A stretch of 30,373 nt of DNA from a virus, in the UHGV virus genome UHGV-0127428; one strand, written 5' to 3'. The notes below the pieces were generated by a model, which saw only the letters and a list, made by a program, of their open reading frames with translations, was not told where the DNA came from and did not search any database. Shown one piece after another: positions 5,926-30,323 of this stretch (the first letter of the stretch is position 1; every line of letters starts with the position of its first letter). The position numbers were made by a program, and so were the translations under genes.

Positions 5926-6067
5926 AAAACACTCGATTAATCTCGTGTTAATGCCATCACCTACGACCATTACTAATTGATTGAATCTTATAGAAAAATC
6001 ATCATTTTCTATGCGTCACAATCAATTTTCACATTACAAACGCTCCGACACTTTAGCCGGAGATTTT

Positions 6068-7345: not shown

Positions 7346-7352
7346 ACGTAAT

Positions 7353-7386
7353 AAAGAGGCTTCAATATAGACTGATGCCTCTTTTA
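7353..7386. terminator. bidirectional terminator hairpin between convergent genes
   Basis: Stem agaggc / gcctct (7355-7360 and 7377-7382) with a T-run after it; lies between the end of the integrase (+) and the end of the 219-aa gene (-). Confidence 0.45.
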
Positions 7387-7425
7387 TGATTATCTCGTTA
7401 CAGAGCGTTTCATAGGCGTTTAAGG

Positions 7426-8085
7426 CTATTGTTTAAATACTGGCGTTACAACGTCTTGCCCTGGGCTTTTTGTATTTACCTGCATTTTAATCTGTCCCCC
7501 TACAGATTTATTTGGTGCTGTTTTTACCGCAATTGCGCTTGTAGTTGCTTTAGAGACAAGACGGATTTGCTCAAAATCAAGAGTAAACAATAGGCTTTCG
7601 CTTGCTTCTTCTTCATAAGACATGCCAACTAACACAACGTTGTCATAATTTTTTAACTCAGTGACAAGTAGGAAAGGTTGGCGACTGTCCATCAACTGAT
7701 TTAGGTATTCAAGCATAAGCATACGTCGATTGCCGTTAATTCCCGCATTCTTAATCATATCGGGATTGAGCTTCAATACGGTTTCAGAGATACGCCCCTG
7801 TAATGTGAACTTGTTATTCCGTATTTGAACATGATCACTAACTTCTGATCCTGATTCGACGGCATAGCTTGTAACGTCTGCATTTCGGCTAACTTTCGTC
7901 GATTCCACGCTATCAAATGATAATGCCTGGTAGTCATTGTAAGCAGCATTTGCACCACTGCCGAGGTTAGAGGTAATGATCGCAAAGCCGTTACCCCCTT
8001 TAGTTGTTCTACCGTTGCTATCGTTGCTTGTGCTGTTGATTTTCGCCTCAGTCGGGCGACCAATGGTTAACGGACCCATTGCCAT
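7426..8085 (-). CDS. hypothetical protein (219 aa), last gene of the capsid-like operon
   Basis: Good RBS (aagga) upstream of the ATG at 8085; Gly/Asn/Ser-rich N-terminus; no recognisable motif. Confidence 0.5.
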   Translation of the reverse strand: MAMGPLTIGRPTEAKINSTSNDSNGRTTKGGNGFAIITSNLGSGANAAYNDYQALSFDSVESTKVSRNADVTSYAVESGSEVSDHVQIRNNKFTLQGRISETVLKLNPDMIKNAGINGNRRMLMLEYLNQLMDSRQPFLLVTELKNYDNVVLVGMSYEEEASESLLFTLDFEQIRLVSKATTSAIAVKTAPNKSVGGQIKMQVNTKSPGQDVVTPVFKQ

Positions 8086-8132
8086 AATTTGTAATCCTTA
8101 TTTAAGGGGGCTAAACTGCCCCACAGTGATGA

Positions 8133-9974
8133 TTAATAGGTTGACCCGCCTGACATAACACCCAGCGTTAATAGCTTGCTAAACTCAGCGGAGGATGCCT
8201 TTGATTTGAAGTCGATAAATTCGCTCAATCGTCCGGTGTCTGATTCGATAGTTAGCGGCACTTCTGCATTTACTTGTAATTCTGGATTGAAGTTAATAAC
8301 AGGTGCAAAGGTGTAAGAAGGAGCCTTGAAAGCTTGTTGTGCTGCACTCTGTTTCAGATTTGCAATGTTTTGTCCTTCGAGACTGTATTGATTTACAGCC
8401 TGCGCCCCACCTACCGTTTCTTCTGGCATAAACCAGCTTTTAATAGTGTTAACCAGGGAATTGCTGTTATCTGGCTTAGTTGTTCCGGTGCCAGCGCCTT
8501 TATATTGATCAGGAGTGAGATTAGAAAGATTCTGCTTCATTCCTTCGTTAGATAGTGGCGGTGCATCCCCTAAATTCTTTTGAATAGCTGCCGTCTTCTC
8601 GTCGTTTTTCATCAGCCAGTTGATTGCTTTCATTACAGCGTTAACCAATCCGCCGATAGCCTCGCCTAATTTGGTAAACATTGGCAGCATTGCAACCATG
8701 CTCTTTTTAAACTCTTCAATCACTTTCGGATCAAGAGATTTCATAAAGCCATCAACAAAGGCGATCCCTTGTGAGTCAGAAAGCCCACTAAGTGCATTAT
8801 TCAGTTCACGGAATTTAATAACGCTTTCCTGTTGTGCCTGCGTTACCCAGCGCCCTGATTCTCGTTGTTCTCGTGCTGATTGTTCCACTTCTTTAGCGGA
8901 GCGTGTCCAGTATTTAGAGGTGAGCATCAAATCATCAGCCAGATCTTCCAGACGACTACCGATTTGTGCATCTGAATAGCCTTTAGCTACCATTCCCTGA
9001 ACTGCTTTACTAACCAGACCAGCCGGATTATCAGCAAAGTCTTTTAGATCCTTTTTAGTTAAGAATCCTTCATTCATTAAAGTATTGATGCCGCTATCGC
9101 CGCCCTTCCATTCTCCTTTACCTGTTTTTTTATCGACTACATATTCAGCCTCATCATAGCTTTTGGTTGCACGCTCACGCACATCTTTCATCTGATCGAG
9201 ATACTTACGTTTACCTTGATCCCCCATCATTGAATCAACGCCGTTTTTGTAGGCCCATTGCTCAATATTGTTCATCTGGTTAACGTCTACACCGCCCAGC
9301 TTCGCACGGCTATACAATTCTCCCAGCGTTTCAGCACTGGCAAAGCTGTTAGTAACAAATTCAGAGGCTTTGCTCATAGCCATATATGCAGCGCCAGCGC
9401 CTAAGCCACCCAGCATAACAGCCGCAGCACCGCCGCCAATACTCCCGCTACCCTTAACAGGTGCATAGGCTTTAGCGTGAGCGTTACGATTGCCATTAAT
9501 CTTACGTTGTTGCTGTTGTAGGCGTTTCATTTGGCTATTCATACGTGCCAGACTAATAGCGCCTCTTTCATATTGGAGGGCAATTTCTCTAGCCTGTGCA
9601 ATAGCTTTATATTGTTCCGCTACAGAAAGACGGTGCATTGCACTAATGCTTGATCCAACGTCTAAAAGCTTTAATTCTGCCTTCTCTTTGCGTGCTGCCA
9701 GGGCTTTTTGTTCTCTTGCAACTACACGTTGAGCGGCTAATTGTGCTTTAGCATTAGCTTTATCAGCCTGTGCTTGCTTTTTAGCAATATCGTCTACGTC
9801 TTTTTTTGCTTTAGCGGTTGATTGTTTATGTGTCTTAACACGCAATTCTATATCTTTCACAGCCGCCATTTGTTTACGAAGTTTTTCTACTTCTGCTTTT
9901 GCTTTCTCTAATGATGGTCGGTTAACTTCGAAGGTGACAACGTTCGAGAGGCGTGCCACGTTTAGCTCTAACAT
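8133..9974 (-). CDS. tape-measure-like protein (613 aa; coiled-coil N-terminus plus Gly-rich hydrophobic segment)
   Basis: N-terminal Lys/Ala/Gln/Glu-rich predicted coiled coil (KLRKQMAAVKDIELRVK...AKAQLAAQRVVAREQ) followed by GSGSIGGGAAAVMLGGLGAGAAYMA. This architecture is typical of phage tape-measure or internal virion proteins; assignment is by composition only. Confidence 0.4.
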   Translation of the reverse strand: MLELNVARLSNVVTFEVNRPSLEKAKAEVEKLRKQMAAVKDIELRVKTHKQSTAKAKKDVDDIAKKQAQADKANAKAQLAAQRVVAREQKALAARKEKAELKLLDVGSSISAMHRLSVAEQYKAIAQAREIALQYERGAISLARMNSQMKRLQQQQRKINGNRNAHAKAYAPVKGSGSIGGGAAAVMLGGLGAGAAYMAMSKASEFVTNSFASAETLGELYSRAKLGGVDVNQMNNIEQWAYKNGVDSMMGDQGKRKYLDQMKDVRERATKSYDEAEYVVDKKTGKGEWKGGDSGINTLMNEGFLTKKDLKDFADNPAGLVSKAVQGMVAKGYSDAQIGSRLEDLADDLMLTSKYWTRSAKEVEQSAREQRESGRWVTQAQQESVIKFRELNNALSGLSDSQGIAFVDGFMKSLDPKVIEEFKKSMVAMLPMFTKLGEAIGGLVNAVMKAINWLMKNDEKTAAIQKNLGDAPPLSNEGMKQNLSNLTPDQYKGAGTGTTKPDNSNSLVNTIKSWFMPEETVGGAQAVNQYSLEGQNIANLKQSAAQQAFKAPSYTFAPVINFNPELQVNAEVPLTIESDTGRLSEFIDFKSKASSAEFSKLLTLGVMSGGSTY

Positions 9975-10008
9975 GTTAATTGTTTCCCTGTATTATGATT
10001 GTTGTTTG

Positions 10009-10206
10009 TTATTGTTTTTTAGAACAATAATATTGGATTGCTTCGAAAGTGCTGCACCCAGTCTGAAAGACACGCTGGCGCACATTATTTGCATCAATTT
10101 CTAAAAGGCGGCAAAGCGCCGATGTGTTTATAACTGATTCCTCGCTAATAGCTGCCAGTTCTTTTACAGATTTAAGAATTAATGCCTGTGAATTTTCTGT
10201 ATTCAT
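10009..10206 (-). CDS. small hypothetical protein (65 aa from the ATG at 10206)
   Basis: Internal ATG with gagag RBS; the longer 91-aa frame starts in a hydrophobic, unlikely leader. Confidence 0.3.
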   Translation of the reverse strand: MNTENSQALILKSVKELAAISEESVINTSALCRLLEIDANNVRQRVFQTGCSTFEAIQYYCSKKQ

Positions 10207-10360
10207 TGGTTTTCTCTCACATATATATATTTTTATTTGGGTTTGTAGACAGTAGAAAAACAAAAAGGGCAAGAGACAGCGCATATTTTGCTTATATGAT
10301 TATCCCTTACCCTTATTGCCCCGATTATTTCCAGACGTAGGGGAACGTCTTTAACACTTT

Positions 10361-11389
10361 TTACGCTACTGTGATCTGCACAGAGAAGCCAACACCGTGG
10401 TTAACCACAAGCGAGCTATTCTCGGTCACTACGTGCACTGCGTCGCCGCGATTCGATTCGAAAGCATAGCTGTAATACTCTTTAGCGCCTTGAGACAGCA
10501 GATCGAAGGAACTGGAAGGCGCGCCATAGATAGCTTGGTAAACACCTCCACCCTTAGCGAATTTAGGCACGGCTACAGCGTCAGCGGTCATATGTGCCAG
10601 CAGCAGCGGATCAGTCACTTTGATCAGATCAATGTTAGTTCCTGGAATGGTGAAAGTAGTTACGCCAGGCAGCAGAGAACGCACATTAAACACCACGTTT
10701 GCATCGTCTACAGGGCTTGCATATTGGAACGCATTGACCATGCCAACGCTGTAACGAATAGCGTTGAATGCCGCAGGTTTACAGAACACAACAACACGCT
10801 CAATGGTTGCAGCCTGGCTTTGTGCCTTAGCAATCATATCCGTATGCATCTGATCAAATTGCTTGAATACGGTCATTGTGTTGGTGCTGGATGCGTCAAC
10901 GGTTGCAGTCATTGGAGACACACCGAACAGAGTGCTGTAATCGATCAGAACATCGTCAGTTTTCGGGGTATGTGTCTTGCCAGAGAACAGAGAAGCCGCG
11001 AGGATGCTTTCTTTAGTGCGCTGGAATGCAACATTGTGTTTAGCGATATATTCCGCATACAGATCCGGCAGTGTTTCTTCAATAGAGCTTCCGGCTTTGC
11101 GTTTGCCTTGCACGTCCTGCGGTTTGATCAGGTCTTCACGCAGGAAGTAAGGGATTTCAATCAGCCATTCTTCCCCGTTCTCACGCTTAGTAACGTTATG
11201 CTCAGAGCTAAAACGGCTTGTAGGATGGTTGAACAGAGATTCATTGCTCTCGATAAGCTGGGAAACAGCCACTTTGTGACTTTCTACAGGCACAGGATCA
11301 GTAAAATCCAGAGTAGACAGTAGGTAATTGCGTGAGTCGTTTAATTCGAACAGTGGAGCAAGATCAACCACTTCATTTCCGATAATCAT
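10361..11389 (-). CDS. candidate major capsid protein (lambda gpE-like family)
   Basis: 342 aa, similar in size to lambda E (about 341 aa). The C-terminal ...GFSVQITVA resembles the recalled lambda E C-terminus ...FVSVQLA. It is directly preceded by a small decoration-sized gene, as D precedes E in lambda. Strong RBS. Family assignment is tentative. Confidence 0.45.
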   Translation of the reverse strand: MIIGNEVVDLAPLFELNDSRNYLLSTLDFTDPVPVESHKVAVSQLIESNESLFNHPTSRFSSEHNVTKRENGEEWLIEIPYFLREDLIKPQDVQGKRKAGSSIEETLPDLYAEYIAKHNVAFQRTKESILAASLFSGKTHTPKTDDVLIDYSTLFGVSPMTATVDASSTNTMTVFKQFDQMHTDMIAKAQSQAATIERVVVFCKPAAFNAIRYSVGMVNAFQYASPVDDANVVFNVRSLLPGVTTFTIPGTNIDLIKVTDPLLLAHMTADAVAVPKFAKGGGVYQAIYGAPSSSFDLLSQGAKEYYSYAFESNRGDAVHVVTENSSLVVNHGVGFSVQITVA

Positions 11390-11405
11390 TATTATTTATT
11401 CCTTC

Positions 11406-11780
11406 TTAAGATGTGAAAACAGAGTGGAAGCCTTCAAGCTGGAAGCCTTTAGCAGCGAGAGCTGCAATAGCAGCTTCTTTTACAGCGCCTTCGGCATTCA
11501 GGGCATCAGCTTTGATGCAAACGAGTCCGGCATTAGCACGAAGCACGTTAACTGTTTTATTTGAATCAGCAGTTACGAAGTCAGACACAACGACAAGAAC
11601 ATCAGCGCCGCTAACATATTTAGCGCCGGATGAATCAATGAGGTCGCCGCACGTTACATCTTGTGCAAGTGCTGCAAATTTTTTGCTTTCTACAGCCGCG
11701 TAAGGGTCGGTTGCATAGCTCACTACGTCAGTGATGCTTTTACGATGTGGGAAAACATCGCTTAATTTTAAAATAGCCAT
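11406..11780 (-). CDS. candidate head decoration-like protein (124 aa)
   Basis: Size and position immediately upstream of the capsid-like gene; Ala/Val/Gly-rich beta-type composition; aagga RBS. No direct motif evidence. Confidence 0.35.
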   Translation of the reverse strand: MAILKLSDVFPHRKSITDVVSYATDPYAAVESKKFAALAQDVTCGDLIDSSGAKYVSGADVLVVVSDFVTADSNKTVNVLRANAGLVCIKADALNAEGAVKEAAIAALAAKGFQLEGFHSVFTS

Positions 11781-11989
11781 TATTTTTCCTTAGATTGTTT
11801 GATTTGTTGAGCTTTAGCATTAATCAAATCTTGGTGAGATGGTTTATTGCTTTCAGCCTTATAAAGACGTTCACACTGTTTCTTTAATTCTGTGGGAGTG
11901 ATGCCAAGCGCGTAGGCTGTAGCATTCAACACATCTTCAGTTAGTGTTAACTTTTCATTGCCATATTTCAGGATAATTTCTTGTTTCAT
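11780..11989 (-). CDS. small hypothetical protein (69 aa), first gene of the capsid-like operon
   Basis: ORF whose stop overlaps the start of the next gene; lysine-rich and helical in composition. Confidence 0.35.
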   Translation of the reverse strand: MKQEIILKYGNEKLTLTEDVLNATAYALGITPTELKKQCERLYKAESNKPSHQDLINAKAQQIKQSKEK

Positions 11990-12983
11990 TTATATAACGA
12001 TTCCATTATGTTGGAATTTAATAAATCCCCCAGGCTATAAGAGGTTCAATCTGACAATAGCGAGGGGGATTTATTAACGTGTCGGGCAATACACAGCGAT
12101 AAGTAAAACCTTGAGGAGGTTTTAAACGTATCTCTAAGAATGCTTATTAAACATGCTTAAAGATAGGTTTAAAGGGTGAACAGATATTCCTGAAAACATG
12201 CTCTTAGGAAAACATGCGGAATCAATCAGGAATATCTATTCGGGGCGCGGTGGCTAACCGCTATCTTTCATGGTGTGGATGCACCAGTCAGATTTTAAGG
12301 AATCACTATTCCAATCTACTCACAGATTAAATTTTTAATAATGATTAACTACACCAACAGTAATCTACCGTTTCAGAAAATCGTTTTTACAACCAAAGCT
12401 TATAGATCCGCATTCTATAAAACCCGTTTTGCTATCAATATTTCCAAAGTTTATTGCACCATTCTTAGCTAAACTCTCTCTACTTGCGGCTAACGCTATG
12501 CAGATGATAGTTTTTTGACAACAACTTAATAGATTATTCTGTTACTAACTTCTGTCATTAAATAAGAGTTTAATGATGTTAGTAAATAGTTATAAAATAT
12601 AACTATCAGTGTAAGGCTCTTTAATGTTTTCGGACAAAATAAGGAGCTTTAGGATAAGCATAGATGAAAAATAAGAGCGGGAAGGGCAAGGAGATAACAC
12701 CTACCCGCTTTTATCAAAAATTAAGCACAATGCCTAACAACATTTATCAACACAACGTAGAAACAATCAACAATCAAAGAGGGAGTTATGATTATTCTAA
12801 AACTTCTTGAGGGGATGGAAGGTAATATTTGTTAGAGGTTAATGCCATTCAACCTTTGAGGCTATCACCTTCCATATGCAGGGATTTATGACAGGAAAAG
12901 GATTAACACCAGTCAAAACCTTTTTATCTACCCCTAATATTATTATATAATGAAATCGTTATAAATGCAAATGATTTTTATTA

Positions 12984-13292
12984 TCATTTAGAGAAAATAG
13001 CACTTTTTGCTAAATCATCTACTAATTGCTGAATCTCTTCACTTGCAGCCTTTAACGTGCTGGCGGTGTCTGTGATGGTTTGAGTGCACATCTTGGCATT
13101 GTCCTCAATTAGCTCTAAATCTCTCACCAGAGAGATAAAATCGTCAAGGCTTACATTCACCTTCATTAAGCTAATAACGCATTGAGAGAGCGTGTAATCG
13201 CATAAATCTGAATAGGCTTGATTTATTCTTGTTTGTAGTGAGATAGTCAGATCTAAAAGTTGTTCCATTGCATTGCTAATATCTTCTTCCAT
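12984..13292 (-). CDS. hypothetical acidic protein (102 aa)
   Basis: aaggag RBS; start overlaps the stop of the upstream gene (taATG); no recognisable family. Confidence 0.45.
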   Translation of the reverse strand: MEEDISNAMEQLLDLTISLQTRINQAYSDLCDYTLSQCVISLMKVNVSLDDFISLVRDLELIEDNAKMCTQTITDTASTLKAASEEIQQLVDDLAKSAIFSK

Positions 13293-13495
13293 TATGCGGC
13301 TTCTCCTTGTAATGCATCATTAATCATATTCAATACGATGTTAAAAGGTGTCTTGAGCGTCAGCACTTCATCACGGTAACGCTCTAATGCTTCGTAGTCT
13401 TCTGTTTCTTTTGCCAGTCGGATTAACTCAGCATAGTTTTTTGCATCAGACAGGATCATCTGAAATAATTGTGTTTCTTGAATATAGCCAATCAT
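13292..13495 (-). CDS. hypothetical protein (67 aa from the internal ATG)
   Basis: The internal start MIGYIQETQ... has a strong aaagga RBS; the longer 81-aa frame begins in the intergenic region. Confidence 0.4.
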   Translation of the reverse strand: MIGYIQETQLFQMILSDAKNYAELIRLAKETEDYEALERYRDEVLTLKTPFNIVLNMINDALQGEAA

Positions 13496-13552
13496 TATTT
13501 TTCCTTTTTTGAATATTTTCATTGGGCGCTTATACATACGCCCATCATTTTA

Positions 13553-13933
13553 TTAGTTAGAACGTTTGTTAGAAGCTAATGTATCTTCTAAATGAGCCAT
13601 CAGATCGACTTCCGATGCACCACCTACACAATTATTGAAAGCGTTAAATCCCAAAAAATGATGATAGGAGCTAAACCCTAAAAGCTGCCAACGTTTCAGA
13701 GTGCCATCAGAAATGATAGTTTGTTTTCTTGTTCTTGGGCGAAAGTAAACGCCTGGCATTGACTGGATTATTTCTAATTCTTCATCGCTTAATTCAGGGG
13801 ATTCTGTTTCAAGAATAAAGATTATCTCTTCCCCTGGATCGTTATTGGTGTGTGTCGGTGGACGTTGTCTTTTTGAATTGAAATTACTGTTTTTTTCAAT
13901 ACGTTTTAAGTTATTACGTTTCTTTTTTCCCAT
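13553..13933 (-). CDS. hypothetical protein (126 aa) with a basic N-terminus
   Basis: Strong RBS (aagaggga); N-terminal MGKKKRNNLKRIEK...; no recognisable family. Confidence 0.45.
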   Translation of the reverse strand: MGKKKRNNLKRIEKNSNFNSKRQRPPTHTNNDPGEEIIFILETESPELSDEELEIIQSMPGVYFRPRTRKQTIISDGTLKRWQLLGFSSYHHFLGFNAFNNCVGGASEVDLMAHLEDTLASNKRSN

Positions 13934-14116
13934 TTTCCCTCTTTTTATGTGGATTATAAAAACTTAATGTCATTGTTACGATGAATATCGCCATAAATGC
14001 ATTTGCCATATGTATTGCCCGATCTGTTGTTATTGATTGTTTGTGATAAACAATTCAAAATCTTTGTTTAATTTCAAAAGACGAAATGTAGTGCTGTTAT
14101 AAGCCATTTATTCTCC

Positions 14117-14686
14117 TTAGAATGGTATTGAATCGTATATTTCACTTTTTTCTCTTAGAGATATTATCAGATCGTGAAAAGCCTGTTTCTCAAGATAGAT
14201 ATTCTTTGAATCTAATGCTCGTTTTACAAAATCTTCTGTTTCTTCGTGCGGTGGTTTCTTCTTATCAAGGGAAAGAAGCCAAGTAAAAATTTCGGGCCGC
14301 TCAGGGAACTCTGATTCCTGTATTTCTTCTTCAACGATGATTTCGGAAACATTCAATATTCCATTAGATTCGTCTTCTTTCTCAGAAGGATCAGGTAGTG
14401 ATGATTCTCCTTTTGGAATATCAAGCACTCGATAAAGGTTAGAGCTTCCTGGTCGTGCATCTTTTATAATTAATCCCATTTCGAGCAATTTCTTAACCCT
14501 TTCTTCTGCTGCTCTTGGTGTTATGCCAAAAACATCGCCTATCTTAGCGTAAGAGGGAAATGCACGATCAAACCCTCTCAAATAGCAGTAAAGGTTTTTA
14601 GCACTATCTGTAAATTTATGCCCGTTTACTTGGCTTATTTTTAGAATCCACATAGGAACTTTTACAAATTGTTCTTCATTAATCAT
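14117..14686 (-). CDS. replication initiator-like protein (winged-HTH Rep family)
   Basis: Start set at the ATG at 14686 with aaggag 8 nt upstream. N-terminal region (LYCYLRGF...AFPSYAKIGDVFGITPRAAEERVKKLLEMGLI) is typical of plasmid/phage wHTH replication initiators; acidic C-terminus. An iteron array lies 1.3 kb upstream. Confidence 0.5.
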   Translation of the reverse strand: MINEEQFVKVPMWILKISQVNGHKFTDSAKNLYCYLRGFDRAFPSYAKIGDVFGITPRAAEERVKKLLEMGLIIKDARPGSSNLYRVLDIPKGESSLPDPSEKEDESNGILNVSEIIVEEEIQESEFPERPEIFTWLLSLDKKKPPHEETEDFVKRALDSKNIYLEKQAFHDLIISLREKSEIYDSIPF

Positions 14687-14739
14687 TAAAAATCTCCTTG
14701 ATGTAATCACGCTCTACGGCGCTACTATGGTGATAAAAA

Positions 14740-14910
14740 TCACTTGCTTTTGTTTGAGAGTGTTTCAGCCTCTCTTTTCAACATATCAAGAATGTAATCT
14801 GTAACAGTGATACGTTTACTTCTGGCTTCTTTAAACAACACCTGAAATACTTCATCAGGAATATGAAAGCAAGTGCGTGGTTGTCTTTTCTTTTCTGTAG
14901 TTTCGCTCAT
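14740..14910 (-). CDS. small ribbon-helix-helix (CopG/Arc-like) regulator candidate (56 aa)
   Basis: MSETTEKKRQPRTCFHIPDEVFQVLFKEARSKRITVTDYILDMLKREAE fits an RHH pattern (beta strand then two helices); strong RBS; immediately upstream of rep. Confidence 0.4.
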   Translation of the reverse strand: MSETTEKKRQPRTCFHIPDEVFQVLFKEARSKRITVTDYILDMLKREAETLSNKSK

Positions 14911-14931
14911 AGTTTTCTCCTTCTCCTGTTA

Positions 14932-15108
14932 TTATTCTTTCTCTGCCTTACGCAGTTCATCAATAATTTTTAGTGCATCGTCAAAGCATTTTTCACGCTC
15001 TGGATAACCACAGCGTCGCGCTGTGTTCCTGTTCATCCTTACTTTAAAACGATTAATCTCACCACGTTTCCAGGCTTCAACTACATCCTGTGGAGTAAAA
15101 TATTTCAT
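14932..15108 (-). CDS. small hypothetical protein (58 aa)
   Basis: ATG with a perfect aggagg SD; first gene of the rep operon. Confidence 0.35.
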   Translation of the reverse strand: MKYFTPQDVVEAWKRGEINRFKVRMNRNTARRCGYPEREKCFDDALKIIDELRKAEKE

Positions 15109-15960
15109 TAATTAGCCTCCTTATTCTATTTGGTTAAAAGAAAAAACACCTTGCAAGCCTTGTTGGGCTTCAAAGTGCGGTGCATTGGTTTAATTACTTA
15201 GAGGATAAGAATGTTTTCTGTCCCTAATATTACTTTACCACGACTAAAAGCTTTTGTCAACCCCTAGCCATAAAAATATTGATCATTTTCAGTGTGTTAT
15301 AATTTTTCTTAGCAATTCGTGCTCTTACGAGTGCTCCTATTCTTCCTTATTCTCTAAAACGCTCTAAAACGCCCTCTGACGAGGTTTTGATAAATACAAT
15401 ACATTCCCTTATGTAGAGGCTGTTTAGCTCGCCTACGGCTTGATTTAAGCGGTAGAATCTTATTTAACCTTCAACTACTAAAACCATTCTTTCTTTTTTG
15501 TTTGTTGTTGGTTGTTGTCTGTGTCTATGTGCTAACATCGCTAACGCGTAGCACACAAGGTTATTGCACTCGTCAGAGTATTGCACAATAGATTTTCTCT
15601 TAAATAGATTGATGATCGTTAGATGGTAGTTAGTTAATTATCGTTATGCGCACAGCGCAAGACTATTTAGCCTTACGCAAGCCGTAGGCTATTTGCACAT
15701 AGTAGATTACATATTCGTTGTGAGCGGCATTAGCGAACATAGATCTACTAACTAACATCAACAAACAAAAACTATGTGTTATGACAAGCAGTCTAACGAT
15801 TAACACTCTAACTTGTGCAAGGTTCTGGCGAATGCCAATAGATTAAGGGATAGTCAAGGACTCCCCTAACGGGTATCTCTATAATTATTCTTTAAAGATA
15901 AAAGAATTTATAAAAGATAATTTAATTGTAGTTTGATAGTTGATCTAATAGGTAACAAAA

Positions 15961-16096
15961 TTCTGTAGGGGTGGCTAACAGTTTTCTGTGGGGGTGTATA
16001 ACATAATTCTGTTAGGGTTGGGGTAACAGTTTTCTGTTAGGGTGCATATTTCTTTAAAAGTTAAGGATAACAGAATTCTGTGGGGGTAGTTCACAG
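15961..16096. repeat. iteron-like direct repeats (five copies of TTCTGTnGGGG...), candidate replication origin
   Basis: Copies start at 15961, 15984, 16007, 16032 and 16076, mostly 23-25 bp apart, consensus ttctgt(a/g/t)ggg(g/t)t; set in AT-rich noncoding DNA upstream of the rep operon. Confidence 0.6.
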
Positions 16097-16480
16097 TGAC
16101 CTACCGTTACATCCATTTATCACATAACATCTGTGCAATGATCTTCTAAAAGTGTTTCTTGCTACCAAAATTAAACATCTAAAACAGGCTTAAATTCAAT
16201 GTAATTGATGATTAATCCCTGTGTAATTCCTACGTAAAAATCCAATGAAAAGTAGCTTAAAAAGTGCAATGTTAGCTTTCTTCACTTTTACATCACTTTC
16301 GCAAAGCCGCATTACACACGGCTTACAGAGCACTATCAGAAATTGTTGATTAAAAATCAATCTATTATTTGTCGAACAAGTTTCCTTTAATGCAACAAAA
16401 AATTATTTTTTCAAAATAAACACACTATTTAATAGCTTGCTAATTTTACCAAAATGTAACTACATGATTCTCATGCAAGA

Positions 16481-16586
16481 CGTGTAGTGATAAAGCAGGC
16501 TAAATCACCACACTAAAAACCTTCGAATTTCGTAGTGAAAAAAGTCCTTTACACACCTAATCAACACGATCAATAATCACTACACG
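16481..16586. promoter_or_regulatory. candidate res-like recombinase binding region (11-bp inverted repeat)
   Basis: cgtgtagtgat (16481-16491) and its reverse complement atcactacacg (16576-16586), plus repeated atcaacac / atcaccaca motifs, immediately upstream of the serine recombinase gene. Confidence 0.25.
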
Positions 16587-16612
16587 CAAATCAACACAGA
16601 AGGAAAATGAAA

Positions 16613-17164
16613 ATGGCTAATATTGGATACATTAGGGTATCGACTGTCCAACAAAACACAGACCGTCAATTAGCTGGAGTAACTCTTGATAAAGTCTTTG
16701 AAGATAAAGCGTCAGGCAAGAATACCCAGCGCCCACAGTTTGAGGCAATGATGAACTATGTGCGTGAAGGTGATGTTTTGCATGTTCACAGCATTGATCG
16801 ACTTTGCCGTAATACAGCCGACCTACTGGCAACGGTTGAGCAATTAACAGAGCGCGGCGTGTCTGTGCATTTCCATAAAGAAGACTTTAAGACAGGGAAG
16901 AACTCTCCCGCAGGGAATATGATGCTCACAGTGCTTGCAGCAGTGGCACAAATGGAACGTGAAATGATGCTTGAGCGGCAACGTGAGGGGATCGCCGCAG
17001 CTAAGGCCGCTGGACGTATAGCAAAACGTGGTAATGGAAAAGCAATTGATCGAGCGGGAATTGTTGCCGCTCTCGCGAATGGTGGATCAATTCGGAGCGT
17101 AGCAAAAGATTTCAGTGTCAGCACACAGACGGTGCAACGTATCAAGAAAGAGCAGGAAGCGTAA
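16613..17164 (+). CDS. serine recombinase (resolvase/invertase family)
   Basis: N-terminal MANIGYIRVSTVQQ with the catalytic Ser, plus a C-terminal HTH-like tail (SIRSVAKDFSVSTQTVQRI). The start could instead be the ATG at 16607. Confidence 0.8.
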   Translation: MANIGYIRVSTVQQNTDRQLAGVTLDKVFEDKASGKNTQRPQFEAMMNYVREGDVLHVHSIDRLCRNTADLLATVEQLTERGVSVHFHKEDFKTGKNSPAGNMMLTVLAAVAQMEREMMLERQREGIAAAKAAGRIAKRGNGKAIDRAGIVAALANGGSIRSVAKDFSVSTQTVQRIKKEQEA

Positions 17165-17867: not shown

Positions 17868-18457
17868 CGTGTTGCCTCTGTATTCATATGAAAATTAACA
17901 AGTTACATACTACACAGGGAGACTACGCATAAAACACAATACAAGTAAAGATACATTTTCAAGACAATAGGAGCCATAAAGCGCCTTTGATGGTTATACC
18001 AAAAAATAAGCGCCGTAGGCGTATCCACTAAAAAGGGCTTTTTCACAAAAGCTATGAAGTCTTAGCAGTTCTTCTCTTATCAGGCACCCGTTGTACTCCG
18101 GTGGACGAAACCGTGCTAGAGCTTGATTCTTTCCCGATCAAGTTAGGTTTTGAAGAGGTGGGCTTTGATCCACTATTGCACTTAAAACTCTTCCCATCAT
18201 TTAGCCTGTTTATCCTCTGCAACGTCTCACGACGTGTAGCATCATTGGACACCGCGCCAGGTGTGGAACATCTTGCTAAGAGTTTTGGTAGAAGGTTTAG
18301 AGACGGTGGCACGTCTTCCAGCTTCAAAGGAACTTGTTACGAGGTTGAGCCTGGGAACTACTCGCCCATACGTGTTACACTACCAAAGCCCATAACAACG
18401 TATAGGCGTTTGTAAGTGATAACAGAAGATACAATTTCTTAGAGAAGTTAAGCTAAG

Positions 18458-18519
18458 TTATTGATTTTCTTAATGGTGCCGATAATAGGAGTCGAACCTA
18501 CGACCTTCGCATTACGAAT
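18458..18519 (-). repeat. att core copy 2 carrying a 46-nt 3' fragment of tRNA-Thr (18474-18519)
   Basis: The reverse complement of 18474-18519 equals the tRNA-Thr(CGU) sequence from the anticodon loop to the CCA end (ATTCGTAATGCGAAGGTCGTAGGTTCGACTCCTATTATCGGCACCA). Similarity to the tRNA stops at 18520, so this is a displaced partial copy, not a gene. Flank ttattgatttt matches the other two copies. Confidence 0.8.
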
Positions 18520-18624
18520 CTGTAGCACCAATCATAACTATCTGTTTTAGCAAGCATTAACCGCATTCACTAAGCTATAGTTGATGGCACAAACAGAAAG
18601 TTGATGCATGATGTTGCCATGTGT

Positions 18625-18644
18625 ATGGCACAAATACGGCACAA
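18625..18644. repeat. 20-bp direct repeat atggcacaaatacggcacaa, also at 30271-30290; candidate integrase arm-type site
   Basis: Perfect 20-bp copy just inside each end of element C; a half-copy gatggcacaaa at 18583-18593. The right-hand copy lies within the 3' end of the int coding sequence. Confidence 0.4.
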
Positions 18645-18751
18645 CAATCTTAAAACATGTAGCCACGCATCCACAGAAGAGCACAAAGCCTTGCAATCCA
18701 GTGCAAAGCTTTGTGTGTCTCAGTTTTGTCTCATAGGTAACTCTGTGTTAA

Positions 18752-19042
18752 CTACGATGCAAGAATCCATACCAATAAGCATCCGATAATTGGGAAAGAA
18801 AAATCCATCAGGCTTGCCACATCCCATGCACGCGGATCAAAACCGCCCCACCACGGCATATTCATACGCTTGCCATGCCCGAACATTTCAATCCAGCGAT
18901 ATTCTGCCTGGGTATGTTCACGCGCAATGAAGAACGTACAACCGGCTATCGCTCCGTAAGCCCAGTTTCCGGTAAAAAGGCCAATCAGTACCTGCGCAGC
19001 CACAGCACAAAGCGCATGAAGTAAGGGGCTTATATCCATCAT
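18752..19042 (-). CDS. small integral membrane protein (96 aa, about three predicted TM helices)
   Basis: Hydrophobic segments LLHALCAVAAQVLIGLF, AYGAIAGCTFFIA and FSFPIIGCLLVWILAS; divergent from the GT2 gene. Confidence 0.45.
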   Translation of the reverse strand: MMDISPLLHALCAVAAQVLIGLFTGNWAYGAIAGCTFFIAREHTQAEYRWIEMFGHGKRMNMPWWGGFDPRAWDVASLMDFSFPIIGCLLVWILAS

Positions 19043-19323
19043 AAATTCTTCGACGAAACCACAGCATAATTTCTTTTGTTATTAAATCGGAAAACATTGT
19101 AACATGCGTTACTGGATTACTTGCTTCACTGTGAATGATATACATGATAGAATCTGCAACTCAAATCATATAAAACTTAAGCCGTTCCGCGTTTTATGCC
19201 CGTTGCTTCCACGGGCTATTTTCACAAAGATCACTCACAAAAATAATTATATTCACTTTTACTCTAATAAAGAATAAAATAATCAATCGTCAATTTGTAC
19301 CATTAATTTTGTTTCAAGCCTTC

Positions 19324-19352
19324 CCCGCTTTCGCGAGAATGCGGGGTTTTTT
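19324..19352 (+). terminator. rho-independent terminator-like hairpin
   Basis: ccccgc ... gcgggg stem followed by ttttttat, in the AT-rich intergenic region between the membrane protein gene and the GT2 gene. Confidence 0.4.
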
Positions 19353-19632
19353 ATATGGACATAACTTCCCACCCACTATTTGTACACTTATAATTCAGAT
19401 TCGCTGAAAGACGTTCAGAATGTACTTTGACAGATTTAATCATGTTTCACTTATCACCAACAAAATCATCACCAAGAAAACTATTGCACACATTAACTAT
19501 ACCTCGTCGCATTGCAGCATGGTATGCAGATGACATCATTAAATGATGTTACAATGCTGAGATATAATGCTTCATGTTATGATGATAGCATTTTGAACAT
19601 TCATAAACACTACTAATATTAGAGGCTACGAT

Positions 19633-20937
19633 ATGAGAAATGATATTACTGCCACGTCTGAAAATATAGTGGATTTTTTTAAACAGACATCATTAAATGA
19701 CTACATAAAAAAAGCATGGCTATACAATGAAAATTGCTTCGTTGTTGATTTTGAATATAAGAGCGTGAAATTTGCTCTGGATTTCTCATATGATCAAACA
19801 ATCGATAAACAAAATTTAAATGTTGATTTCGTACTAAGAAGCAATCCGTTTAACTTCACAATTGCGAAGGGGAAAAATAAAGAACGTATATCATCAGAGG
19901 CAAATCTTACATCTGCATTGGCTTCTTCCCTTCTAAAAATAACAAGTGTAATTAACATCATTAACTCTTGTCGCCCTATTGATGTTAGTGTAGTTATACC
20001 TGTACATAACCGCGAAAAACTTATTCTTGAATGTATTAACTCACTTAATAACCAAACAATTAACAAGGATCGTTTTGAGGTTGTTTTCATCGATGATTGC
20101 TCAAGTGACAAAAGCATTGCCGCTATAGAATATAATATATCACCAGATATTAATTACAGAATTATCCGCCGCGAAGTTGGTTCTGGCAACGCTTCAACTC
20201 CACGCAATGAGGGTATAAAATCAGCAAAAGGTCGTTATATTTTTTTCATGGATTCTGATGATTATATTGACGAAACTCTTCTTGAGAGAGGGATGCAAAT
20301 TGCTGATAAAAATAACAGTGATGTTGTTTACTTCAAAATTGCATCAGATGGAAGTCGTGAGGTGCCGATCCGTCCATACAAAGTAAAAATTGTAGATAAA
20401 GCCGATATAACCAAGCACCATCTATTGCGGTCATTAACTATATTCAAATTCTTCAGAAGAAACATGCTTAAAGAGCATAACATACTCTTTAATCCTGCTA
20501 TCACTGTAGCTGAAGATAAAATATTCATGGTTCACGTTTTGTCTGTGGCCAAGAATATATCCATTCTTGCCGACAAAGATTATTATCACATAACACTTCA
20601 TGATGGAAGTCATTTATCACGACAAAAATTCCCTCTTGAGGATAGGCATTTCATTCTCAACTCGATCATTAACACTATTTACTTTTGCGAAAAAACGGAT
20701 GAAGAAAAGGCCAAGCTTTACAATGCGTGGCTGGTGATATGCCTTGAAATGATGGAAAAGGTATGTGGTAAAGCAGGTGGCAACGAGCAAAAGAAACGGA
20801 TGTTCTTTAACATGCTTTCAACAGCTTTCAATATCCGCTCAGATTTAGTAAATCAGGATATGATTTATCCCCCTCAGCGTAAGTTCATCAAACCTTTTTT
20901 ACAAAATAATTATGAAGGTTTTATAGCTGAAATTTAA
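19633..20937 (+). CDS. family-2 glycosyltransferase (GT2) with an N-terminal extension of unknown function
   Basis: GT2 core VSVVIPVHNREKLILECINSLNNQ...FEVVFIDDCSSD...YIFFMDSDDYID with a DxD motif, preceded by about 115 aa of unknown sequence; no obvious TM segment; very AT-rich codon usage. Confidence 0.75.
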   Translation: MRNDITATSENIVDFFKQTSLNDYIKKAWLYNENCFVVDFEYKSVKFALDFSYDQTIDKQNLNVDFVLRSNPFNFTIAKGKNKERISSEANLTSALASSLLKITSVINIINSCRPIDVSVVIPVHNREKLILECINSLNNQTINKDRFEVVFIDDCSSDKSIAAIEYNISPDINYRIIRREVGSGNASTPRNEGIKSAKGRYIFFMDSDDYIDETLLERGMQIADKNNSDVVYFKIASDGSREVPIRPYKVKIVDKADITKHHLLRSLTIFKFFRRNMLKEHNILFNPAITVAEDKIFMVHVLSVAKNISILADKDYYHITLHDGSHLSRQKFPLEDRHFILNSIINTIYFCEKTDEEKAKLYNAWLVICLEMMEKVCGKAGGNEQKKRMFFNMLSTAFNIRSDLVNQDMIYPPQRKFIKPFLQNNYEGFIAEI

Positions 20938-20943
20938 AACATT

Positions 20944-20962
20944 GCCCAGCATGTAGCTGGGC
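20944..20962. terminator. hairpin between convergent GT2 and tailspike genes
   Basis: gcccagc atgta gctgggc perfect 7-bp stem; lacks a strong T-run. Confidence 0.3.
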
Positions 20963-20983
20963 ATACATTAAAAGTATCACATG

Positions 20984-23377
20984 TCAACCATTTGGTATTG
21001 ACTTTAATAATCTTTCCAGATAATTAATCCTTGATGTGATATTAGCAATATTCTGCTCATGGTTATGATATAGTGCGCTCATTGCCAGAAACATTAACTC
21101 GTCATAGCGCACTGATAATTTCCTTCCTGATTCTACAAGTAACCTTATTTCACCCGTTTCATACTCTTCTTCCTCTGTGATTTCATCATGCTGGCCCGAT
21201 TCTTCATCAATCAAAATTTTTCTGGTTACATTTCTTGTTGCATAGACTTTCTCGTACTCGTCATCCCACTCTTCATAGCAAAGAACTCCATAAGAAAATG
21301 CATCAAGCCCTTCAGATTCAAAGATGGATTGTATATCTTGCGCAATTACACCGATATGCTCACGCGCTGATAAGCCTTTTTCTTTTACAGCATCCTTCAT
21401 TCTGAATTTTTTTATCAGCGGGTAAATAGCCATTCCAACCCGTAGTTCTGCATCAGATAATGAAGTTTCATCCTGCTTGTAATTTCTGTCGCTGGTTACG
21501 ATGGGACTATTATTGATATACAGGTTTCTGACAGTATTCGACTGTGTACCAATATCATAAAGATTTGAACCTGATGGTCGAAAATGACCTAATTCTGTTA
21601 ATACCCATCTGTCACGCAAGCCGTCACTCTCTCCCATGGTTCCAAAGTAGAAAGCAACCGGGATATTGTCTCCGGAAGGATTACCTCTTGTGACGCATTT
21701 AATGCGTGCGCATTGCACAGCCTTACTACCTGTATCACCAGCCCATACATGAGTACCCAATACATCCCCTGTCTGCAGAGCTCCAAAATTATCAGTTGAT
21801 ACAACACCAGAGCGAGACTTATACATTATTGCTCTTGGTCCTTCTGCGGTGTCTGACTGATGCCGGGAAACCCATGAGTTGCTCATCCCTTCCGTGCCGT
21901 TTGAAGCTAACTGCATTCCACCAGTAATTCCGCCATCAAGAAACAATATAGGGTTATCCCGGTTAGTTTGAATACCCTTTCTTGTTGGCCAAACTGTCCA
22001 GTGAAAAGTATCATTGTACTCCCTTACTCCATATTTGAACTCCGGGGAGCCAGAACTATGAAGACCAGTATTACTGGATACAGAACGGCTTGCTTTGCTT
22101 TGCACTACCGAACCAGACCTGCCTATATCAAACAGATATACATTTTTCCCGTTCTCAGCAACTCCTTTATATGTGCATATCCCCAGCGTTAAAACATACC
22201 CACTCTCCGTTCTAATTACTGTTAGGGACTCAGGCTCTTTATAAACAGGAGTTCCTGTACTGTCAGATTTTGCTTCATCATCACCAACAGTTGAAATATC
22301 TACTCGCTCAATAAACCTGCCTGTTAAGTCAAATACGTAAATATAATTAGTCATGCCAACATACGTATGTGACTCAAGTATGTAAATGTATGCCCCATCG
22401 CAAGCAATTGATTGGGTAAATGCTTCTTGTGATGGTTTTTGATAGCTAAACTCAACTAAATAATCATCACTATAATCAGTTTTATGAGCTCTGTTATTCC
22501 ACATGCTGACTATGTCGAAAACACGAACCGTGCAGGTAATTCCATCCGATGAAATTTTCTTGGCAAGTAGATAGTTTTCACAACTTGATACAGTTGGAGT
22601 AGAGCTTGCGCTCATTCCATCATAGGGGAACAACTTCCAGGTGATAAAACCTTCAGATACTCCGTTGGTTGTCCCTGTGTAACTCAATATATTTTCCATC
22701 GAAATACATTGATTGGCGGCATCGGTTCCATAAGGCTTCGATGTCCACAGCACGACAGTACCATCAGGATTATGATGCAATCCAAGCCCCTGATGCCCAA
22801 GTTCAGTAGAACGGGTTCTGTCGTATCTTCCTAGTTCACCAGAATTCGTCACGTCAAAGGCATTAATGCAATAACCGTATGCTGTGGTAGATGATAAAGT
22901 AAAAATCTTGTCGTTAATTTCATCATAACAACACCCCTGAATGACCGCATATAACCCCCCCGCACCTTCAGTTCTGCGCAACGTGTGTCTGGTGTTATAT
23001 ACTTTTGGCATTCCGGAAAATATCAATGGCTCTCTTTTATCTCTTAATTTAAGATCACCAATCGCAATTCGTTTACTGCCATCACGAATAAAAGAACCAT
23101 TTATATAGCTATTTTCAATAAAACTTTTAGTAACAAAAAATGCTCTTCCACTTAAATCAATAACCCTATTTTTTATATCCATTTCCAACGCGACAAATGC
23201 TTCAGTATCATCGCTAATCCCATCCCCCTTAGCTCCAAAATAAAGAGGAGACATATTTAGCATATCATTTGATAATACTTTTTGTTTAAACTGATCCGGG
23301 TCATACTTCAGCACATTAGGAAAATAGAACTGCTGCGCACCGTACGCATCATAAACAGCCATAGAATGGCCTTGCAC
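20984..23377 (-). CDS. tailspike/tail-fibre protein, 5'-truncated: end of a P22-type head-binding domain, beta-helix domain, C-terminal intramolecular chaperone (S74-like) domain
   Basis: N-terminus [29 protein letters not shown] matches the end of the P22 tailspike head-binding domain, then a pectate-lyase-like motif [14 protein letters not shown]. The C-terminal region (SDAELRV...[10 protein letters not shown]...) matches the S74 chaperone pattern. P22-like sequence continues upstream of the GTG start to a stop at 23429-23431. Confidence 0.65.
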
Positions 23378-23460
23378 AGTTACGAATTTGGCAATCTGTC
23401 CGTTATATACCGGGTATCGTTGAATTCGTTAAACAGCAAGAGCAGTTATTCTGCGGAGCA

Positions 23461-28938: not shown

Positions 28939-29286
28939 GTGGAAGAAGAAATCTTCACTCGTGAAGAGGCAGCATCGTATCTGAAGGTAGACAAAGGCAC
29001 TATCACGCAGTGGATACGAAGTGGACGACTTCAGGCCGCAAAGATAAATCCAGATAAACCTAAAAGTCCATATCGCATTTGCAAGTCAGACTGCATTGCG
29101 GCGCTTAAGTCTGTGAGACACAATAGCGCGGTGAATGCGGTTGATGTGCAGGAGGTTAAAGCATGTCAATCAAACTACGCGGTGGCACGTGGCACTGTGA
29201 TTTCGTCGCGCCAGATGGATCAAGAGTTAGACGCTCTCTTGAAACATCGGACAAAAGGCAAGCGCAAGAACTTCACGATCGTCTGA
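28939..29286 (+). CDS. xis: excisionase (Xis), divergent paralogue of the element A Xis
   Basis: GTG start; TITQWIRSGRLQAAKINPDKPKSPY...CIAALKS parallels [25 protein letters not shown]...CIAALQS; overlaps the int start. Confidence 0.6.
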   Translation: MEEEIFTREEAASYLKVDKGTITQWIRSGRLQAAKINPDKPKSPYRICKSDCIAALKSVRHNSAVNAVDVQEVKACQSNYAVARGTVISSRQMDQELDALLKHRTKGKRKNFTIV

Positions 29287-30323
29287 AAGCAGAAGCGTGG
29301 AGAGTAAAAAATCTCGGGGAATCACCGAAAAAGCTATTCAAGGAAGCCTGCATACGGTGGCTGCGTGAGAAATCGGATAAGAAGTCCATTGATGATGACA
29401 AGAGCATTATATCGTTCTGGATGTTGCACTTCAGAGAAACCATTCTCTCTGACATAACAACAGAAAAAATAATGGAGGCGGTAGACGGGATGGAAAACCG
29501 CCGCCATCGCCTGAACTGGGAGATGAGCCGGGACAGGTGTTTGCGGCTTGGCAATCCAGTGCCGGAGTATAAACCAAAGCTGGCAAGTAAAGGAACGAAG
29601 ACGCGGCATCTGGCAATACTTCGCGCTATTCTCAATATGGCTGTTGAATGGGGATGGCTTGACAGGGCGCCCAAAATATCAACACCACGCGTTAAGAATG
29701 GACGAATCAGATGGCTTACAGAGGAGGAGTCGAAGCGCCTGTTTGCAGAAATTGCTCCTCATTTCTTCCCTGTGGTCATGTTTGCAATCACGACAGGCCT
29801 TCGCCGTTCCAACGTTACAGACCTTGAGTGGTCACAGGTCGATCTGGATAAGAAAATGGCATGGATGCACCCTGATGAAACAAAAGCTGGCAATGCGATC
29901 GGAGTTCCTCTTAACGAAACCGCATGCCAGATATTAAGAAAACAGCAGGGGCTCCATAAGAGATGGGTATTTGTCCACACCAAACCTGCCTACCGAAGCG
30001 ACGGAACAAAAACAGCAGCGGTAAGGAAGATGAGAACCGACAGCAACAAGGCATGGAAGGGAGCGTTAAAGCGGGCAGGCATTAGCAACTTCCGCTTCCA
30101 TGACCTGAGGCATACCTGGGCAAGCTGGCTGGTTCAGTCCGGTGTCTCTCTTCTTGCACTTAAAGAGATGGGAGGATGGGAAACTCTCGAAATGGTTCAA
30201 AGATACGCCCACCTTTCAGCCGGGCATCTCACCGAGCACGCGAGCAAAATCGATGCGATTATAAGTCGCAATGGCACAAATACGGCACAAGAGGAGAACG
30301 TAGTTTACTTAAATGTGAGGTAA
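29163..30323 (+). CDS. int: P22-family tyrosine integrase, second copy (diverged paralogue of the 4729-5892 integrase)
   Basis: 386 aa; [29 protein letters not shown]; stop lies 14 nt before the tRNA 3' end. Confidence 0.9.
   Translation: MSIKLRGGTWHCDFVAPDGSRVRRSLETSDKRQAQELHDRLKAEAWRVKNLGESPKKLFKEACIRWLREKSDKKSIDDDKSIISFWMLHFRETILSDITTEKIMEAVDGMENRRHRLNWEMSRDRCLRLGNPVPEYKPKLASKGTKTRHLAILRAILNMAVEWGWLDRAPKISTPRVKNGRIRWLTEEESKRLFAEIAPHFFPVVMFAITTGLRRSNVTDLEWSQVDLDKKMAWMHPDETKAGNAIGVPLNETACQILRKQQGLHKRWVFVHTKPAYRSDGTKTAAVRKMRTDSNKAWKGALKRAGISNFRFHDLRHTWASWLVQSGVSLLALKEMGGWETLEMVQRYAHLSAGHLTEHASKIDAIISRNGTNTAQEENVVYLNVR

Follow-up and report, generated by a model that had tools for sequence, protein, structure and literature searches.

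The glycosyltransferases (GTs) TarS and TarP of Staphylococcus aureus, the latter encoded by a prophage, and RmlT of Listeria act in the cytoplasm on polymer that is still lipid-linked. Their common substrate is poly(ribitol-phosphate) teichoic acid (PMC11697029). In Gram-negative hosts, the gtrABC genes of phage P22 and the Sf phages enable a lysogen to modify the glycan used as phage receptor. The slot that these genes fill, between int and the tailspike gene, is presumably also that of neuO in CUS-3, where the encoded acetyltransferase targets a group 2 capsule rather than lipopolysaccharide (LPS). As a P22-like prophage gene, neuO lies outside the capsule gene cluster (PMC3046976). Here we analyse a module of the UHGV virus genome UHGV-0127428 (30,373 nucleotides, the whole of which is referred to below as the window) that combines traits of these systems. 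It consists of a gene for a 434-aa GT (19633-20937, plus strand) and a divergent gene for a 96-aa membrane protein (18752-19042, minus strand), separated by a spacer of 590 bp (19043-19632). We consider it probable (roughly 0.6) that the GT gene is a prophage moron for capsule (K-antigen) conversion, of the TarS/TarP/RmlT type and acting on a ribitol-phosphate capsule. The known kinds of system involved would thus be TarP-like polymer glycosylation and neuO-like capsule modification by a prophage.

An earlier reading of this region, made from the letters of the DNA alone (hereafter the sequence-only reading), had described the larger gene product as a soluble GT2 enzyme with an N-terminal domain of ~115 aa of novel type, and both parts of that description stand. 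The GT2 family PF00535 matches aa 119-279 (E 1.2e-30; 107 bits against a cut-off of 23.3 bits), with ~116 residues preceding the match, and the ATG at 19633 is the only start within the first 130 codons that has a Shine-Dalgarno sequence (AGAGG, 7 nt upstream); start and Shine-Dalgarno sequence are kept across all allele classes. The highest Kyte-Doolittle average over 19-residue stretches is 1.53, none being of transmembrane grade, the N-terminus included, which indicates a soluble or peripheral protein. The catalytic part (aa ~117-434; 19981-20937, plus strand) comprises a TarS/TarP-like GT-A domain and a helical subdomain, in which DD at 154-155, DSDD at 207-210 and E294/D295 are invariant among 21 homologues, the last pair aligning with E177/D178 of TarS. 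A profile of these homologues, compared with the sequences of the Protein Data Bank (PDB), retrieved S. aureus TarS (8e-67, aa 112-427), TarP (3e-57) and Listeria RmlT (1e-37) far above every other solved GT2 enzyme, at identities between the window protein and the three enzymes of ~26-38%. Likewise, when the AF2 model of the protein (pLDDT 89.1) was searched with Foldseek, the top 47 places were all taken by TarS, TarP or RmlT, the last represented by structure 8BZ4 (PMC11697029). Target-normalised TM-scores for this predicted model reach 0.8-0.85 for TarP and the isolated catalytic fragment of TarS and ~0.4-0.5 for the full-length TarS and RmlT chains, of which only the catalytic halves are covered. 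Unlike those enzymes, which continue into a C-terminal oligomerisation domain (trimeric in TarS and TarP, dimeric in RmlT), the window protein ends with the helical subdomain and has instead an unrelated accessory domain, N-terminal here and C-terminal in some genera. Among 50,697 deposited phage genomes, relatives are confined to Listeria phages and the tarP phages of S. aureus, and no isolated coliphage in that set carries the gene. In a scan of genome contigs for further relatives, generic GT2 patterns swamped the output, and the sole additions were one Rahnella homologue and TarS-like genes of Gram-positive bacteria; PADLOC gave no match for the GT or the 96-aa protein, and literature searches on this gene, on an (AGCC)/(CCAG) repeat in E. 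coli and on P2-like prophage glycosyltransferases returned nothing relevant.

The accessory domain (aa 1-116; 19633-19980, plus strand) is predicted with confidence (pLDDT 91) to fold as a helix, a five-stranded antiparallel sheet and a long helix, and has no match among Pfam families or PDB sequences. It is present in all full-length homologues, with K27, W29, V37, A48, D50 and R69 conserved, and is located C-terminally in those from Campylobacter and Psychrobacter. The sequence-only reading had proposed a profile search of this domain; run against 1.84 billion representatives, the profile recovered only 119 proteins, and in the larger ones among them that were scanned, the domain is joined to a polysaccharide pyruvyl transferase, a GT4 enzyme or a GT2 enzyme. 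Pyruvyl transferase fusions often also bear FrhB-like or nitroreductase domains (the fusion proteins seen include P0202, P0210, P0212, P0217, P0264 and P0206, one of them a GT4 enzyme). Conserved, confidently folded, restricted to 119 proteins and yet joined to several enzyme classes, the domain is thus a genuine accessory part of enzymes that act on polysaccharide side chains, rare and without annotation. Its most likely role, we infer, is oligomerisation or docking, in which case it would stand in for the C-terminal oligomerisation domains of TarS, TarP and RmlT.

The genomic surroundings of homologues outside prophages point to the same polymer chemistry as that of the teichoic acid enzymes. 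In all five non-prophage loci examined (E. coli AF16 and AST215 counted as one), the GT gene has as neighbours a fused IspD+SDR gene of the CDP-ribitol synthase type and a TagF-like phosphotransferase gene. Three of the five are clearly kps-type, with export or KpsC/KpsS genes (Campylobacter devanensis, L010; E. coli AF16/AST215; a metagenomic locus, L105), the Psychrobacter immobilis locus (L012) has merely a short Capsule_synth fragment, and the fifth (L106) combines the ribitol-phosphate gene set with a pyruvyl transferase gene, no export genes being present within the stretch seen. In AF16 (L100, 4107-6345) and AST215 (L101, 4106-6345), the leader and the GT gene are found together inside the kps locus, the GT sharing 55% of its residues with the window protein across the whole length and the leader being 72% identical at the nucleotide level. 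In both strains a fragment of a tail-fibre-assembly gene precedes the GT gene and, together with the shared leader, implies that the module moved between phage and capsule locus. In all five prophage loci, by comparison (the window together with E. coli CUVM3; NZ_CP029371.1; the P2-like prophage of REL606; Leclercia; and a metagenomic siphovirus-like prophage), the GT gene is convergent with a spike or fibre gene whose product ends in an S74 chaperone. The likely acceptor differs from that of TarS, TarP and RmlT in that the host is Gram-negative and the polymer would be an exported capsule, not peptidoglycan-linked teichoic acid.

These contexts also bear on the target proposed in the sequence-only reading, namely LPS or another surface glycan. 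Modification of LPS, either of its core or of O-antigen units on undecaprenyl pyrophosphate, as in serotype conversion of the P22, SfV and epsilon15 type, would suit the position of the gene, given that in P22-like phages the stretch from att/int to the tailspike gene is where gtr or oac genes are found. It would also suit the weak matches of the protein to NCBIfam PRK10073 (81 bits against a cut-off of 423 bits), which we take to be the WaaH/YibD model, and to PHROG families labelled 'GtrB-like O-antigen conversion', as well as the occurrence among the carriers of rough laboratory strains, whose exposed LPS is limited to the core. However, O-antigen and waa clusters hold none of the homologues whose loci were examined, every non-prophage homologue adjoins genes for ribitol-phosphate polymer synthesis, and the closest solved relatives decorate polyol-phosphate polymers. 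The module shares with gtrABC its slot and its purpose, modification of the receptor glycan by the lysogen, but, as the sequence-only reading had recognised, not the gene set: there is no third gene, the flippase GtrA (PF04138, four transmembrane helices) and GtrC are both missing, and the GT, unlike GtrB, is devoid of transmembrane helices, such that modification would take place in the cytoplasm, directly on the polymer. Carriage of the GT gene is, moreover, associated with a kps type, as described next. Because both homologue contexts and kps co-occurrence point to a ribitol-phosphate capsule, we regard LPS as an unlikely target and take the broader alternative of the sequence-only reading, another surface glycan, to be the part that fits.

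The kps type in question is that of the E. coli B lineage and some other strains, and its region 2 comprises four genes, encoding a TagF-like protein, a CDP-ribitol synthase, a 379-aa protein and a secreted 319-aa protein (L102, 8631-14858, in E. coli B; L103, 8631-14081, in KFu014). It is present in 49 of 5426 complete genomes, yet 18 of the 29 genomes with the P2-like GT allele carry it, among them both genomes with the window-type allele. The association is strong (Fisher p = 1.5e-31) and is still ~1e-12 after a rough collapse of lineages. A megablast search with the AF16-type kps genes matched 2 genomes only.

Several observations weigh against capsule conversion of this type. The kps type is missing from 11 of the 29 carriers, the E. 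coli B lineage is over-represented in the count by genome, and the co-occurrence could stem from phage host range instead of the acceptor of the enzyme. The insertion sequence (IS) IS1 splits the CDP-ribitol synthase gene of the E. coli B lineage, which means that the proposed acceptor is not made there. In RmlT, the phosphate of ribitol-phosphate is contacted by a His/Arg pair, H268/R273, equivalent to H253/R258 of TarS (PMC11697029). This pair is not evidently conserved in the window protein and its homologues, whose consensus opposite the TarS positions is non-basic, in a stretch where the register is unreliable because single-sequence alignments end before it. Sugar donor and acceptor are, in addition, both deduced from homology, context and co-occurrence, and the host of the window may lack the acceptor.

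A link between the capsule and the phage adsorption apparatus is provided by the tailspike gene next to the GT gene (20984-23377, minus strand), from which it is separated by a GC-rich hairpin (20943-20963, minus strand). The encoded protein is truncated at its N-terminal side and has a receptor-binding region of the beta-propeller type followed by a C-terminal S74 chaperone. The secreted 319-aa protein, product of the last gene of kps region 2 and labelled 'phage baseplate protein' in RefSeq, contains the PF21311 five-bladed propeller (E 2e-15) and shows similarity to the window tailspike (E 5e-6) and the REL606 fibre (E 6e-6) in their receptor-binding regions; spike and fibre are also similar to each other. 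PF21311 was presumably built on phage phi11's receptor-binding protein (RBP). In that protein, a five-bladed propeller platform is found, and the phage protein needs ribitol-phosphate teichoic acid decorated with N-acetylglucosamine (PMC4901313).

If the GT acts in capsule conversion, the 434-aa protein would be a cytoplasmic, peripheral and inverting GT-A enzyme that uses a nucleotide sugar and adds a hexose or N-acetylhexosamine to the ribitol-phosphate units of a teichoic-acid-like group 2 capsule. The modification would take place before export by KpsMT, on polymer that remains lipid-linked at the inner face of the inner membrane. The altered K antigen would mask or change the receptor that the adjacent beta-propeller tailspike or fibre recognises, with superinfection exclusion and antigenic change as the consequences. 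Such a role would resemble that of neuO in CUS-3, with a P22-like prophage enzyme, encoded beside the tailspike gene, whose target, as far as homology and context indicate, would be a group 2 capsule and not LPS, the reaction being glycosylation here and acetylation in neuO.

The position of the module agrees with that of a lysogenic-conversion gene in the int/att-tailspike slot of P22-like phages, as the sequence-only reading had suspected, and the same order recurs in intact relatives. In intact P22-like prophages it is int, small gene, GT gene and tailspike gene; in E. coli CUVM3, xis and intS are followed by the small gene, the GT gene (split by IS3) and the tailspike gene, and NZ_CP029371.1, recorded as 'strain C', has argW, intS, the GT gene, the tailspike gene and ant/arc, without the small gene. 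The GT unit also has the features of a moron: low GC content (0.35 at 19001-19500 and 0.32-0.36 over the GT gene, against 0.44-0.46 immediately to the left of the module), promoter-like sites, flanking hairpins, and presence or absence between related phages. The GT gene is missing from the same slot in phages Gally and vB_EcoP-611R6 and is found in P2-like and siphovirus-like prophages.

The window itself consists of tandem integrative elements at a thrW-type site, with integrase genes at 4729-5892, 5981-7345 and 29163-30323. A thrW-type att core, a 3' fragment of tRNA-Thr at ~18474-18520 (no strand assigned), marks the left end of the prophage remnant; ARAGORN found no complete tRNA, and a match to the segment 18454-18731 is present in the attP/int-3' regions of HK75, HK446 and mEpX2, annotated as thrW-type. 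To the right of the core follow the small gene, the GT gene and the tailspike gene, which abuts recT, and the gp157, ead/Ea22 and DUF551 genes then run toward the integrase gene at 29-30 kb. The tailspike keeps only the last 28 residues of its head-binding domain, and the corresponding region (20984-23460) is short of ~90 N-terminal codons relative to the 889-aa homologue of NZ_CP029371.1 (L003). Since the tailspike gene is truncated at its 5' end and abuts recT, the prophage is evidently a deletion remnant, and from its gene order we read the module as part of a P22-like prophage that has lost everything between the tailspike 5' end and recT. Beside it, next to an SfV/SfIV-like integrase gene, lies an island (5981-17164) with the integrase gene at 5981-7345, a capsid-E-like gene (10361-11389), a resolvase/serine recombinase gene (16607-17164) and a gene for a 613-aa protein without Pfam match; the island could be a satellite of a phage or one more integrative element at thrW.

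In a prophage so reduced, the GT gene might be a functionless passenger, an intact ORF for which no acceptor is available. The truncated tailspike and the loss of most of the prophage speak for this, as do the interruption of the same allele by an IS3-family element in CUVM3 and CPww7 (at a site equivalent to 19881-19887 of the window; L001, 9223-10451), the nonsense codon in the AST215 kps copy (codon 18), and the retention of a GT gene by the E. coli B lineage despite a ribitol pathway broken by IS1. The ORF in the window is nevertheless intact and belongs to a 90%-identity cluster of 76 members, most of the listed ones being full-length 434-aa E. coli proteins, and its start, Shine-Dalgarno sequence, promoter-like site and catalytic residues have all been kept, which makes a mere passenger improbable in our view. 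CUVM3 and CPww7 additionally hold an in-frame P2-like GT allele. Two GT copies are likewise present in the 'E. coli strain C' record NZ_CP029371.1 (from cow's milk), one P22-like and one P2-like (14375-15533); this strain shares the IS1-split kps gene with E. coli B and thus resembles a B-lineage strain.

Relatives of the window gene also resemble neuO in that they are switched by a repeat in the 5' part of the coding sequence, translated as a peptide repeat. In neuO the repeat is a heptanucleotide following the start codon, whereas in these relatives it is an AGCC tetranucleotide at about codon 53, in the accessory domain, within the loop that joins strands 3 and 4 (aa 52-62; 19786-19818, plus strand, in window coordinates). 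The window allele has ordinary sequence and no tandem repeat at this site and is, for that reason, permanently in frame; the repeat characteristic of a contingency locus is a property of its relatives. There, the (AGCC)n tracts are perfect and range from 7.75 to ~67 units: the P22-like copy of NZ_CP029371.1 has 47.5 perfect units (L003, 6683-6872), and the P2-like copies have 7.75 in REL606 (L002, 8896-8926), 21.75 in ATCC 11303, 35.75 in an E. coli B stock, and 34.75 and 45.75 in B-RalR and B-DolR, both recorded as derived from that stock. Sister isolates differ by 1-3 units (CFSAN061763 and CFSAN061768; CUVM3 and CPww7), and the tract lengths of 29 genomes differ by multiples of 4 nt, save in a few interrupted or more divergent copies. 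The ON or OFF state predicted from the frame agrees with whether RefSeq calls a single or a split ORF, 8 of the 29 being ON. Because the unit has four bases, the ASQP-type peptide repeat is identical in every frame, and in-frame proteins with one to many repeats exist. Assembly error in tract lengths is possible, yet would not yield this pattern.

The 96-aa protein (phrog_1443) was described in the sequence-only reading as a three-helix membrane protein and partner of the GT. Its membrane character is borne out by hydrophobic stretches at aa 4-40, with space for two helices, and aa 75-95, which flank a conserved polar core and suggest a small inner-membrane protein; 31 columns are invariant among 18 diverse members, with the motif REHTQAEYRWI...G.R..MPWWGGFD. 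The family comprises at least 657 clusters in Escherichia, Salmonella, Citrobacter, Aeromonas and Comamonas, and has no match in Pfam, NCBIfam, PADLOC or, when searched with the family profile, the PDB. A terminator-like hairpin with a 14-bp stem lies downstream of the gene (18682-18715, minus strand). Adjacent and divergent genes in the window and in CUVM3, together with part of the small gene having moved with the GT gene into a P2-like prophage, could suggest a two-component system in which, for instance, a lipid-linked sugar is handed to the membrane protein. The GT, however, does not have the C-terminal transmembrane helices of polyprenyl-phosphate GT2 enzymes, and the small gene is widespread without any GT gene. 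It stands alone between int and the tailspike gene in phage Gally, beside an O-acetylase gene in vB_EcoP-611R6, and directly after a P2-like tail fibre gene in Aeromonas (L006, 6001-6300) or a GpJ-like gene in Comamonas (L007, 6001-6303), the latter two likewise without a GT gene. At GT loci, conversely, neither the P22-like copy of 'strain C' nor the kps copies have it, and in REL606 its frame has decayed. Because the small gene occurs without the GT gene and is lost or decayed at GT loci, the proposed partnership does not stand, a two-component system is very improbable, and the protein appears, from its distribution, to be an independent and widespread moron next to RBP genes. Genes of the family recur immediately next to those for tail fibres or tips, in prophages of P22-like, P2-like and lambdoid type from distant genera. 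A role in superinfection exclusion would be a guess.

The sequence-only reading gave the coordinates of both ORFs and of the AT-rich spacer exactly, and its further proposals for the spacer, a terminator-like hairpin and a small RNA or peptide, were borne out in part. There are two hairpins on the plus strand, not one: the first (19198-19222) has its stem at 19198-19216 and a T-run to 19222, the stem being preserved in the kps-locus alleles by a compensatory change from T-A to C-G, and the second (19324-19352) has the form CCCCGC...GCGGGG followed by T6. In the region as a whole, 4 terminator-like sites were observed against 1.6 +/- 1.2 expected. Among the promoter-like sites on the same strand are TTCACT-17-TAGAAT with an upstream TG (19125-19153), kept in three allele classes, and the best candidate for the GT gene, TTCCCA-17-TATAAT (19366-19394; 10/12 matches), which would give a leader of ~235 nt. 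A conserved peptide is excluded, given that the spacer ORF at 19104-19277, considered as a gene and rejected, is interrupted by a 1-nt indel in the kps alleles. Control of the Dam/OxyR type was likewise rejected, the lone GATC of the spacer not being conserved, and no RfaH ops element (GGCGGTAG) occurs within the module.

The spacer might instead encode one or two small RNAs of ~60-65 nt (~19160-19222 and ~19287-19352), each having a promoter-like site and a terminator to itself. When the alleles of the window and of REL606 are compared, the spacer is the best-conserved segment of the module (~80%, up to 87%, against 45-75% in the GT body), and three allele classes retain three promoter-like sites and both hairpins, the first with its compensatory change. 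On the other hand, an Rfam scan of 18300-19800 gave no credible match, folding z-scores are modest for the hairpins (-1.6 to -1.9) and that of the 246-nt leader (0.19) is typical of unstructured sequence, and the stretches between promoter-like sites and hairpins are poorly conserved. Furthermore, the high identity may reflect a recombination boundary near the repeat site, and the hairpins could instead shield the moron from int read-through, ahead of the GT promoter at 19366-19394. We therefore consider small RNAs possible, though rather unlikely.

Viewed across genomes, the module is mobile among P22-like, P2-like and siphovirus-like prophages and kps capsule loci. More tentatively, and at somewhat less than even odds, these genes may form one undescribed family of mobile TarP-like capsule GTs that shuttle with their leader between kps loci and the RBP-adjacent moron slot of P22-like, P2-like and lambdoid prophages of Enterobacteriaceae, many alleles being contingency genes whose (AGCC)n tract changes on laboratory time-scales, even in E. 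coli B, and the accessory domain serving as a general adaptor of GT2, GT4 and pyruvyl transferase enzymes. Three points are of interest here, namely the shuttle between capsule locus and prophage, the unannotated accessory domain, and tetranucleotide switching in E. coli relatives, strain B included.

If the GT indeed converts the capsule, the single textbook case of such conversion by an E. coli prophage, K1 O-acetylation by neuO, would be joined by another kind, the glycosylation of a teichoic-acid-like K antigen. The enzyme would then be a Gram-negative counterpart of S. aureus TarP, whose glycosylation shifts both phage susceptibility and immune recognition. The repeat-bearing relatives show that contingency switching by tetranucleotides, as is typical of Haemophilus and Neisseria, is at work in E. 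coli, laboratory stocks of E. coli B included, and the accessory domain is an unannotated component found on several classes of polysaccharide-modifying enzymes. Should the GT convert the capsule, capsule typing, prediction of phage host range and phage therapy against encapsulated E. coli would need to consider such genes.

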